A stretch of DNA of 64,000 nt from a virus (Duplodnaviria; Heunggongvirae; Uroviricota; Caudoviricetes), in the IMG/VR virus record IMGVR_UViG_2636416131_000001, positions 1 to 64,000 of that record; one strand, given 5' to 3'. The notes under the pieces were generated by a model, which did not search any database, was not told the origin of the DNA, and saw only the letters and a program-made list of their open reading frames with translations. Made by a program: the position numbers and the translations under genes. How positions within the stretch are numbered: position 1 is the first letter of the stretch; every line of letters starts with the position of its first letter. Shown in pieces: positions 3,516-6,500 of the stretch.

Positions 3516-6500
3516 AAGAGCTGTGCTACGGATCTGTTTGCAGTGGAATTGAAGCCGCGAGTATTGCCTGGGAACCGTTGGGTATGCGTCCGGCGTGGTT
3601 TGCTGAAATCGAGCCTTTTCCATCTGCCGTTCTTGCGCTCCGCTGGCCCCATGTCGCCAACCTTGGCGACATGACAAAACTTGCCAAAAAAGTCTTGGCT
3701 GGGGAAATCGAATCCCCTGACGTGCTCGTCGGGGGAACACCATGTTTTACCGCGGGGCATATGGTTCTTTGTAAAAATGGTTATAAACCAATAGAAGATG
3801 TTTGCCCTGGCGATTACGTAGTCAGTCATCTCGGGCGGTTACAACAAGTAAAAAGAGTTGGTTCAAAAATAGCTAATACGGGGTTACTTAATGCCGTTGG
3901 GCAGCCTTTAGGTATAAGAACAACCAATGACCATCCCTTCCTGGCTGTTCGGTGGAAAGCCCAAAACACCCGGAAAAATGGTACATATTTTAAGAGAGAG
4001 TTGTTGTCTGAACCGGAATGGCGAGCAGCATGTGATATGCCGGGATATCAATGGTGCGCTCTAACTAATTTCAATATTGCATCTCCAGATATTTGTTCTC
4101 GGTTCTTGTCTGAAGAACAGGCTATGTATCTTGCGGGCGCTTATGTTGGCGATGGATATATTAGGAGATGGAGAGGTAAATCTAAGAAGGCGGTTGTTTT
4201 TGGCATAAATTGCCAGAAATTGAGAAAGTTTCATTGCCGCATACCAGAAAACATGTTTTCCGTGGCAAGCGAAATCCGAGGGAGCATCAAAGTAACCTTG
4301 AATGATACGTGTTATGCCAATTGGCTTAATGAACATTTTGGCGAGTTAAGCCATGCTAAACGTATCCCTGCATGGGTGATGTCGCATCCATTGCGTCATG
4401 TGTTTTTACAAGGCTATCTTGATACTGATGGGACACCAAGTGGTAAAGCGGGATTTAGAATTAATAGTGTTAGTCCTGCGCTTGCTTGGGGCGTTGCGGG
4501 GTTGTCACAGACTTGTGGTTATGTTTCTTCGGTCAGCTTTATTGAAGTTGAGCCCAAAAAAGTGATCGAGGATCGCGTGGTAAATCAACGGAATTATTAT
4601 CAGGTAACAATCTGCCCGCAGAAATTGTCACGTAAATCAAGATTGGCTCATGGAATGCTTTTACGAACAGTCAAAGAGTTTAAATCGGTAGGCCTAGATA
4701 CTGTATACAACATAGAAGTCGAAGGTGATCATTCCTATATCCTCAATGGTGCGGTGGTCCATAACTGTCAGGCATTCAGTATCGCGGGATTACGTGGTGG
4801 GCTTGATGATGAGCGTGGCGCGCTAACTTTAAAGTATGTGGAGCTTGCAAATGCAATTGACGACAAACGGGCTGAGTCATTTCTCAAACCAGCCGTTATC
4901 GTCTGGGAAAATGTCCCAGGAGTCTTGTCATCGGCAGATAACGCCTTCGGATGTTTCCTTGCCGGATTGGCTGGAGAAGATGTGCCATTTGAACCAGGTG
5001 ATCGACCTGAATCAGGAAAAAGCAACGCGTTCTGGCGGTGGGATGGCAAAACCGGTTGCCATGTTCCAAAGTGGCCGCAGTGTGGTTGTATTTATGGACC
5101 GCAGCGAAAGGTGGCCTGGAGAATCCTTGATGCCCAATACTTCGGAGTGGCACAACGACGCCGACGCGTGTTTGTTGTCGCAAGTGCTCGAACAGACCTC
5201 GATCCCGCAACGGTACTTTTTGAGTTCGAAGGCGTGCGCCGGAATATTGCGCCGAGCCGAAAAAAGAAGGAAATCGCTTCCGCCATTACTGCAAATGGCG
5301 CTGCAATCAGTGGCGAAAGCCTAAATCCATGCCTACACGCTGGCATGTCCCCCGGTATGAAATCGACGAAATCCGTAAACGGTTTCAGGATGGCGGCATT
5401 TGGGGAATATATTGACGATGAAACCGCATCGACAGTAAAGGCAAGAGACTTTAAAGATGCCACTGACCTTGCCGTTTTTAGCAGCACTGGAGCAGGTTTT
5501 TGGTCAGAAGGGCATGGTACATTGCGGGCGCGTGAGCAAGAAAACCATGAGCATCTTGTTACATTGGCTTTTCCTGAGCGTATGAGTGGTACACAACATG
5601 CAGCAACTAAGAATACTTCACCATCTCTAATGGCTCAAAATCCAACTGCTGTTTGCTATGAAGTAAGAAACGAAGAAGTAGCTGTCCGCCGTCTTACCCC
5701 TGTCGAATGTGAGAGACTTCAAGGTTTTCCTGATGGGCATACGTTGATCCCTACGGAAAAGCGTAAAAAAGTTAATTCAGATGAACTGGCATATCTTCGC
5801 AATCACTATCCAGATTTAAGCGAAGAAGAGGCCGCGATGCTTGCAGCTGACGGACCGCGTTACAAAGCGATCGGCAATAGTATGGCAATACCAGTAATGC
5901 GCTGGATTGGCGATCGGATTACTAAGGCCGTATGTCGGCAGAAAGAAGGAAGTGAAACAAAAGAGCGAAAAGTTAAACCAGCGGCAGAATTCGAACGGTC
6001 CATATTCAAATGGGCTGGTGGAAAATTTGGTGTTCTGGAACAAATCTTTCGCTATTTGCCAGAAGGGAAGCGCCTGATCGAACCTTTTGTCGGTGGCGGA
6101 GCTGTCTTCACGAATGCCGGATACCAGGAAAATCTGCTAAATGATGTGAATGCTGACCTGATTAACTTTTACAAGACTCTGCAACGCGAGGCGCATTCAC
6201 TTATCACACTGGCGCATCGTTTCTTCCAGGACTACAACACACAGGAAGGATACCTGGCAGTACGGAATGCGTTTAACAAACAAGTCTATGATGATTTACA
6301 TCGCGCAGCGGCGTTTTTGTTCCTGAACCGACATTGTTTTAACGGATTGACGCGTTACAACCAGGCCGGTGAGTTCAATGTCGGTTACGGGAAGTATAAA
6401 ACTCCGTATTTCCCATTACAGGAGATGGAAGCCTTCCTCGGTGCGGAAGGGCGGTCTGAGTTTGTATGCGGTGATTTTGCAGCGGTGATTGAAGCTGCCG

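Follow-up and report, generated by a model that had tools for sequence, protein, structure and literature searches.

What accounts for the additional 341 codons in the dmt gene of a P1-like virus? The question is raised by the first 64,000 nucleotides of IMG/VR record IMGVR_UViG_2636416131_000001 (hereafter the window), a P1-like phage or phage-plasmid the first 25 kb of which are approximately 98% identical to P1, RCS47 and related Punavirus genomes. Its dmt open reading frame (ORF) specifies 1095 amino acids, and the Dmt protein of reference P1 (AF234172) has 754. An earlier note, made from the sequence alone, had proposed that the surplus is a LAGLIDADG intein which splits the catalytic PCQ motif of the C5-methyltransferase (C5-MTase) domain. 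The analysis presented here leaves hardly any doubt that the insert is an intein, and makes it very probable that nucleotides 3743-4765 encode a true class-1 intein, harbouring a LAGLIDADG homing endonuclease of the double-motif type and inserted after Pro77, directly ahead of the catalytic Cys of motif IV. To judge from its sequence the precursor should, with equally good prospects, splice; that the endonuclease is active at present we favour with distinctly less assurance.

When the translated ORF was aligned with reference P1 Dmt a single gap appeared, which corresponds exactly to window residues 78-418, the residues to which the earlier note had assigned the insert; ORF 3512-6799 reads as it was quoted there. 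The insert is 1023 nt in length (341 aa) and in frame, and its removal (1095 - 341) leaves 754 residues, the length which the earlier note gave for intein-free P1 Dmt. The flanks are contiguous in intein-free P1 as VLVWGTP^CQAFSIAG (the caret marks a junction here and below), and the joined flanks of the window read GGTP^CQAFSIAG. At all 82 junctions inspected in the fetched loci the boundaries are identical, and 57 IMG/VR alleles lack exactly nucleotides 3743-4765. The clean 1023-bp insertion that had been anticipated is therefore found against AF234172 and at the other junctions alike. As had also been remarked, the insert is richer in A+T than its surroundings, with a G+C fraction of 0.429 versus 0.554 in the N-extein and 0.486 in the C-extein.

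Spliced in silico, the N-terminal domain of Dmt aligns unbroken over the junction to M.HhaI (...GFPCQAFSISGKQKGFEDSRGTL..., with its motif GFPCQAFSISG; E 2.5e-9). The score of the PF00145 profile rises from 106 bits, in three pieces, for the unspliced protein to 130 bits, in one stretch crossing the junction, for the spliced one. Since the spliced sequence aligns across the junction to M.HhaI, Cys+1 of the insert is the Cys of the PCQ motif, in agreement with the earlier presumption that it doubles as the nucleophile of the methylase; the PCQ Cys (Cys81 in M.HhaI) is the catalytic nucleophile of C5 methyltransferases. Motifs I, IV, VI, VIII, IX and X of the extein methyltransferase are intact in the intein-plus alleles. 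We considered whether the insert might be a group I intron or the gene of a free-standing homing endonuclease and excluded both, since it lies in frame, lacks a start and a stop of its own and possesses intein termini.

The features recognized in the insert are as follows:

3743-4765, + strand: predicted intein, 341 aa, 38.3 kDa, pI 9.35; class-1 Hint domain split by a double-motif LAGLIDADG endonuclease domain
3743-3760, + strand: block A, CFTAGH, with Cys1 (3743-3745) as nucleophile of the N-S acyl shift; C1 is found in 128/128 aligned same-site inteins
3920-3940, + strand: block B, TTNDHPF, in which T61 (3923-3925) and H64 (3932-3934) form TxxH; both 100% conserved
4130-4162, + strand: LAGLIDADG motif 1, catalytic D137 at 4151-4153; G132 100%, D137 94% and G138 100% conserved
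4406-4435, + strand: LAGLIDADG motif 2, catalytic D229 at 4427-4429; G224 99%, D229 98% and G230 97% conserved
4703-4765, + strand: blocks F and G, with D329 (4727-4729), H340 (4760-4762) and the terminal N341 (4763-4765); placed by TIGR01443 and alignment

Cys1, the two LAGLIDADG motifs, the terminal HN and Cys+1, all of them listed in the earlier note, are present. The TxxH block which it named is likewise there, although the label TTNDHPF has been refined to the block-B residues T61 and H64 (T138 and H141 of the precursor). Compared with 127 same-site relatives the window intein retains C1, T61, H64, K206, D137, D229, D329, H340 and N341, which are 89-100% conserved: C1, T61, H64 and N341 are invariant, and D137, D229, K206, D329 and H340 are conserved at 89-98% (K206 at 98%).

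Profile searches, which had been suggested as a check, gave 28.5 bits for Hint_2 (PF13403, residues 1-49; cut-off 28.4), 35 bits for LAGLIDADG_3 (PF14528; cut-off 22.5) and 25.9-28.9 bits for intein_Cterm (TIGR01443; cut-off 15.6). A sequence search of the PDB produced two matches only, both weak, to the C-terminus of the Spl DnaX mini-intein (E 0.0014) and to the endonuclease domain of PI-PkoII (E 0.013), so that a comparison of folds was needed. A single-sequence model (pLDDT 31) was discarded and an AlphaFold2 model built on a 15-sequence alignment (pLDDT 93.7, pTM 0.90) was used. With Foldseek this matched, at prob 1.00, the PDB structures of PI-SceI (E 1.4e-16), TliVMA (3.7e-16), PhoVMA, PI-PfuI (3.9e-10) and PI-PkoII (1.8e-9); I-DmoI and I-SceI came next (E about 1e-4), and the mini-inteins Prp8 and Ssp DnaB match the splicing part. 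In the model the N- and C-terminal segments together form a Hint fold, accompanied by a LAGLIDADG fold, and the predicted architecture is of the PI-SceI type.

We propose that Cys1 would form a thioester which Cys+1 would attack (trans-thioesterification), and that Asn341, aided by His340 and Asp329, would then cyclise, with an S-N shift to follow. The 121.7-kDa precursor would in this way yield an 83.4-kDa Dmt of 754 aa, its PCQ loop intact, and a free intein of 38.3 kDa. Since the intein divides the active-site loop, and one and the same Cys would serve as nucleophile of catalysis and of splicing, C5-methylase activity would depend on splicing. Once two P1-like genomes occupied one cell the free intein would cut intein-less dmt around ...GGGGG(A/T)AC(A/G)CCT^TGTCAGGCATTCAG..., the intein-less target junction in dmt reading ...GTCGGGGG(A/T)AC(A/G)CCT^TGTCAGGCATTCAGTATCGC... 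(a CCT^TGT junction), and repair off the intein-plus copy would convert the allele along with nearby flank markers. According to the reference P1 annotation the dmt operon is under the control of the C1-repressed promoter Pdmt, and the endonuclease would consequently be made once C1 repression is lifted, presumably during lytic growth.

The natural variation of the locus bears upon the second half of this scheme. In a sample of 80 IMG/VR loci, the window and three phage records, all 25 intein copies are ungapped ORFs of 1023 nt with 0 stops, at least 99.1% identical to the window copy; identity within the P1-family intein cluster is at least 98.7%. Their polymorphism consists of 13 synonymous changes (approximately 227 sites) and 15 non-synonymous ones (approximately 796 sites), none of them at a catalytic residue, for a ratio of non-synonymous to synonymous polymorphism (pN/pS) of about 0.33. 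The intein is under purifying selection. Among intein-plus alleles the nucleotide diversity (pi) of the intein is 0.0062 (maximum 0.011), versus 0.0388 in the N-extein, 0.0115 in the first 490 nt of the C-extein and 0.0135 in hrdC, the gene upstream of dmt. For certain intein-plus alleles the identical neighbours in hrdC or in the C-extein are intein-less, and the intein resides on two dmt backbones which differ centrally, one of 2262 nt (3285 nt with the intein) and one of 2016 nt (3039 nt). Sites associated with the intein lie on both sides of it:

3740-3742, + strand: codon of Pro77, CCA, in which the A at 3742 is an intein-linked marker
3625-4925: intein-linked flank markers, upstream at -118, -104, -48, -22 and -1 (nt 3625, 3639, 3695, 3721 and 3742) and downstream from +24 to +160 (nt 4789-4925)

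The -1 base, i.e. the third position of the Pro77 codon, separates the two classes of allele completely, being A wherever the intein is present and T wherever it is absent (A in 20/20 vs 0/50), and over IMG/VR there were 24 intein-plus alleles with A, 77 intein-less alleles with T and zero recombinants. Farther upstream the markers private to intein-plus alleles are carried by 16/20 of them at -22, 14/20 at -48, 15/20 at -104 and 13/20 at -118; the farthest associated site, at -246, is a weaker marker (12/20 intein-plus vs 4/50 intein-less). Downstream, intein-plus alleles are fixed or almost so for the markers between +24 and +160, which only a minority of intein-less alleles carry. The low diversity of the intein, its two backbones and the marker gradient fit homing with co-conversion tracts of variable length.

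Both types of allele are in wide circulation. In PLSDB 127 of the 498 records matching the 5' region of dmt are intein-plus, which was taken to mean that at least 80% of the intein-containing query was covered; 133 records hold intein DNA, 126 of them at least 80% of the intein. Complete E. coli genomes carry it in 152 of the 492 that possess dmt (152/5426, or ~3%, overall), exact-pattern junctions in IMG/VR number 24 with and 77 without the intein (24/101), and 21/80 of the fetched IMG/VR loci are intein-plus. As a rough figure, the intein occurs in between a quarter and a third of the P1-like phages found in nature. The intein-bearing hosts in PLSDB are Escherichia, Salmonella and Shigella; there were 0 intein-bearing PLSDB records from Klebsiella, though 8 Klebsiella records match the dmt region. 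Deposited phages with the intein include RCS47, vB_EcoM-Ro157c2YLVW and OP279344. The last of these (OP279344.1) is the genome of a laboratory P1vir stock, in which the intein (positions 1732-2754 of the fetched locus) is 99.7% identical to that of the window, and since the reference P1 sequences AF234172 and AF234173 are without it, laboratory P1 lineages differ at dmt. The product name given by PGAP, 'Dam family site-specific DNA-(adenine-N6)-methyltransferase', makes no mention of an intein.

Reference P1 (AF234172, c1-100 mod749::IS5) is peculiar in another respect, having Trp where the other alleles have the first Gly of GGTPCQ (TGG for GGG; fetched locus 1501-3765, corresponding to window 3731-3733). 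Among the 82 junctions, 58 of which are intein-less, the change in VLVWGTP^CQ is unique to it; it adjoins the catalytic loop, and the C5-methylase of the reference laboratory strain might perhaps be impaired.

A search for decaying or mini-intein forms yielded no endonuclease-deleted mini-intein and just three damaged copies. In NZ_CP070875.1 (fetched locus, 3001-3829) an IS1-family transposase gene lies right after intein nt 76; in CP142546.1 (fetched locus, 3001-3813) the intein breaks after nt 813 and the remainder is found elsewhere in the record; and in NZ_CP027223.1 (35242-36263) it lacks 1 nt, through a true frameshift or else an error in sequencing. One protein (P0005, 350 aa) has an out-of-frame tail near intein residue 270.

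The P1-family intein belongs to a larger assemblage. When 1.84 billion representative proteins were scanned in full with HMMER, homologous inteins came up in 193 clusters at E <= 1e-30, and in about 125 of the best 140 full-length matches the intein is situated at xP^C...N^C(Q/T), mostly near host residue 70-90. This is a large and little described lineage resident at the PCQ motif of C5 methyltransferases, with more than 100 other C5-methylase clusters. Some members are labelled in UniRef or NCBI only as 'DOD-type homing endonuclease' or 'Hint domain-containing', and we found no publication describing the P^C-site intein family among open-access papers and bioRxiv. The same sources contained no paper in which Dmt, whether of P1, a Punavirus, RCS47 or some phage-plasmid, is said to contain an intein, the matches being confined to engineered toxin-intein systems or unrelated phages; the author of the earlier note knew of none either. 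Pro at -1 is common to almost all relatives at this site, and Pro(-1)-tolerant inteins might be drawn from this lineage.

Two phage members were checked by eye. Mannheimia phage vB_MhS_587AP2 has a 47.7%-identical intein at GGTP^C (locus 1264-3584). Its reading frame runs into a stop after VVHN^CQSDKGG, and the remainder of the methylase is a separate coding sequence (CDS) followed by an HNH homing endonuclease gene; the methylase gene has perhaps been broken, or invaded twice. The Asteriusvirus jumbo coliphage A4 has a 27%-identical intein at motif IV (locus 1270-3168). The cytosine methyltransferase of A4, ph0011, UE-S1 and TH47 reads GGFP^CFPAGT...VVHN^CQAWSVAGK, and its CDS is annotated merely as a methyltransferase.

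Several points tell against the reading of the insert as a splicing and homing intein. Splicing and DNA cleavage are both deduced from conserved residues and the predicted fold. The Hint_2 score passes its cut-off by a margin of 0.1 bit, PF14890 (Intein_splicing) reaches 22 bits, which is under its cut-off of 35.8, and none of the N-terminal intein models of NCBIfam matched the insert at E <= 0.01. Pro at -1 is poor for the N-terminal splicing chemistry in engineered inteins. The frequencies given above are rough because database records are not independent (clonal plasmids, repeated outbreak isolates), and as the nearest non-P1 intein is just 57% identical no donor was identified. Finally, the population data fit the earlier proposal of homing into intein-less alleles but do not prove it, since a single ancient insertion followed by homologous recombination gives a similar gradient.

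The alternative which survives best builds upon this last point. It holds that splicing is intact but that the endonuclease is inactive or lacks a cleavable target, the distribution being the product of one old invasion, vertical descent and homologous recombination. Linkage decay is indeed expected from any single-origin insertion with recombination, yet such a history has to accommodate an intein that is less diverse than its host gene while occupying two dmt backbones. The endonuclease domain usually decays or is deleted after homing stops, according to the homing-cycle model; the present one retains Lys206, its two catalytic Asp residues and the Gly residues of either LAGLIDADG motif, and 0/25 copies have a stop or an indel in this domain, even if a pN/pS of 0.33 amounts to only moderate constraint. 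Roughly 70-75% of alleles are still intein-less, i.e. there has been no sweep, and all of these differ at the -1 base, so that the target is perhaps no longer recognised. On balance we consider this explanation possible, though clearly the lesser prospect, and continue to favour an endonuclease that is active now.

It is unlikely, in our view, that the intein is more than a passenger, either through conditional splicing that gates C5 methylation according to the stage of P1 or through use of the endonuclease as a weapon between P1-like phage-plasmids. If the latter were true, the cutting of rivals' intein-less dmt and the co-conversion of adjacent specificity variants would shape the natural mosaic of dmt alleles. 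A narrower version, to which we give very little credence, regards the intein as a domesticated regulatory switch, maintained by selection on the phage, in which conditional splicing (redox through a Cys1-Cys+1 disulfide, temperature or DNA binding) times C5 methylation. The intein does sit on the catalytic nucleophile with both Cys1 and Cys+1 present, which is the arrangement reported for inteins under redox control; however, insertion into active-site motifs is the norm for selfish inteins. It has been kept intact at intermediate frequency in many lineages, but presence/absence polymorphism, low intein diversity and co-conversion of the flanks are the classical marks of a selfish element, and no data require a benefit to the host.

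That the insert is a splicing-dead, in-frame relic, with the C5-methylase domain permanently inactive and Dmt a Dam methylase only, appears marginally less credible again. The reference P1 annotation, where C5 activity is presumed only, describes Dmt as methylating 'perhaps at C5 cytosine', and a review names Dam activity as what P1 packaging needs; C5 activity may accordingly be dispensable. Yet extein motifs I, IV, VI, VIII, IX and X would not be expected to remain intact in a domain long dead. The disrupted C-extein behind the intein of the Mannheimia phage relative, and the Pro at -1, which is unfavourable in model inteins, lend this explanation some colour; in the dmt intein the residues for all four splicing steps are present and 89-100% conserved in the family, and purifying selection extends over the whole insert, with no stops in 25 copies. 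An assembly artefact, or the chance in-frame insertion of unrelated DNA, can be dismissed, as the same 1023-nt insert recurs at the same position in independent assemblies (133 plasmid, 153 E. coli genome and 5 phage records and 24 IMG/VR contigs) and matches inteins strongly both by profile and by fold.

As a model and transducing phage P1 is a classic, and phage-plasmids of its kind, which often bear resistance genes, are frequently met in E. coli and Salmonella. If the insert is a splicing intein the gene model of Dmt is to be corrected, the mature protein being predicted to have 754 aa, and any C5-methylation phenotype of intein-plus phages would rest on protein splicing. The locus would further offer a native E. 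coli pair of intein and homing endonuclease whose junction (Pro at -1, Cys at +1) is of a sort that engineered inteins handle poorly. Because alleles with and without the intein are found both in circulation and among laboratory P1 strains, it is a genetically tractable natural system for intein homing, co-conversion and fitness cost. Its interest resides in the ease with which it can be tested and in its whereabouts, namely P1, a single P1vir stock and ~3% of the complete genomes of E. coli.

The host gene and its immediate neighbour are organized as follows:

2610-3515, + strand: hrdC/rdgC, the upstream gene, sharing a C1-controlled operon with dmt in the reference P1 annotation
3512-6799, + strand: dmt ORF, GTG start, specifying the 1095-aa, 121.7-kDa Dmt precursor (N-extein, intein, C-extein)
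3512-3742, + strand: N-extein, 77 aa, ending in GGTP (3731-3742), with the C5-MTase motif I region (3530-3562) and the first half of motif IV
4766-4768, + strand: Cys+1, C419 of the precursor and first residue of the C-extein, from the alignment with the PCQ Cys of M.HhaI
4766-5992, + strand: C-extein part 1, the remainder of the C5-MTase domain including its variable central region, from profile and alignment
4766-4789, 4907-4915 and 5153-5167, + strand: C5-MTase motifs CQAFSIAG, ENV and QRRRR
5687-5731 and 5873-5896, + strand: a further C5-MTase motif, and GNSMAIPV
5993-6799, + strand: C-extein part 2, the Dam-type N6-adenine methyltransferase domain (aa 828-1091) and then the stop, from profiles
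6005-6025 and 6524-6535, + strand: Dam-domain motifs FKWAGGK and DPPY

The location of the ORF agrees with that of dmt as annotated in P1 and RCS47, and its GTG start overlaps the stop of hrdC/rdgC. The ENV, QRRRR and DPPY motifs which the earlier note had named are all present. The C-terminal Dam domain (TIGR00571, 247 bits) is located entirely in the C-extein. An antisense ORF inside the intein (4061-4336, 91 aa) was taken as spurious.

The dmt gene itself is mosaic. In IMG/VR it measures 2262, 2016, 2586 or 2421 nt without the intein and 3285, 3039 or 3053 nt with it. The variable central part occupies about 5250-5990 of the window, and the proteins of the window and of P1vir OP279344 diverge after approximately precursor residue 580. 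This looks like the swapping of target-recognition regions between alleles.

On the 3' side of dmt there are tRNA genes for Asn (GTT; 7472-7547) and Thr (TGT; 7550-7625), and a tRNA gene with a CAT anticodon (9057-9132). Since tRNA-Asn and tRNA-Thr are annotated at the same position in P1 and RCS47 these two are nothing out of the ordinary for P1. Similarity to P1, RCS47 and OP279344 ends at approximately nt 22607 of the window, and matching to vB_EcoM-673R5 continues through 25000; the segment 22607-25000 looks like the boundary of a variable region within the P1-like backbone.

How, then, does the dmt intein compare with known systems? It apparently adds an unreported member to a kind already known, the class-1 LAGLIDADG inteins that interrupt active-site motifs of phage enzymes of DNA metabolism, and entails no new mechanism. 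Among its closest counterparts are the same-site inteins of C5-MTases, which share the insertion point, the catalytic Cys as +1 residue and 27-57% identity with the P1-family intein (57% for the nearest non-P1 relative); the closest of them occur in the same phage-type methyltransferase subfamily, with N-exteins that are 59-76% identical. The P1-family copies differ in forming a separate, tight cluster in a host protein which fuses a C5-MTase to a Dam domain.

With PI-SceI, PI-PfuI, PI-PkoII and TliVMA it shares a Hint domain split by a two-motif LAGLIDADG domain, the residues Cys1, TxxH, His-Asn and Cys+1, and insertion into a conserved active-site motif of the host protein. Sequence identity to these is 11-16%, and the structural agreement of the model is partial (TMq 0.52-0.63; root mean square deviation 7-10 A), which suggests a different packing of the domains, possibly without the extra DNA-recognition region. 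PI-SceI is 454 aa in length versus 341 aa for the dmt intein. The hosts of the PI-SceI type are a V-ATPase subunit, ribonucleotide reductase and polymerase, whereas that of the dmt intein is a DNA methylase, with Pro at -1.

The spliced Dmt resembles methyltransferases of the M.HhaI/M.HaeIII type in that motif IV is aligned and motifs VI (ENV), VIII (QRRR), IX and X are recognisable; it differs in its unusual motif I region, its long variable central region and the Dam domain fused to its C-terminus.

Inteins in phage methylases are known from actinobacteriophages. They occur in the N6/N4 methylases of mycobacteriophages (Kelley et al. 2016, PMC5050341; Gosselin et al. 2023, PMC9957025), where they are patchily distributed and give evidence of transfer among divergent methylase alleles, and a 2025 survey of actinophages (10.1101/2025.01.02.630785) lists N-6/N-4 and C-5 methylases among the intein hosts. 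The mycobacteriophage intein of Gosselin et al. was rejected as a member of the same site-specific lineage: the intein of Pacc40 gp60 is 27% identical to that of the window, and its host is annotated as an N-4 methylase and is interrupted at a different motif (VQMHV^C...KN^CPLQF). Like the dmt intein, the actinobacteriophage elements are LAGLIDADG inteins in orphan methylases of phages; their hosts are phages of Actinobacteria rather than enterobacterial phage-plasmids.

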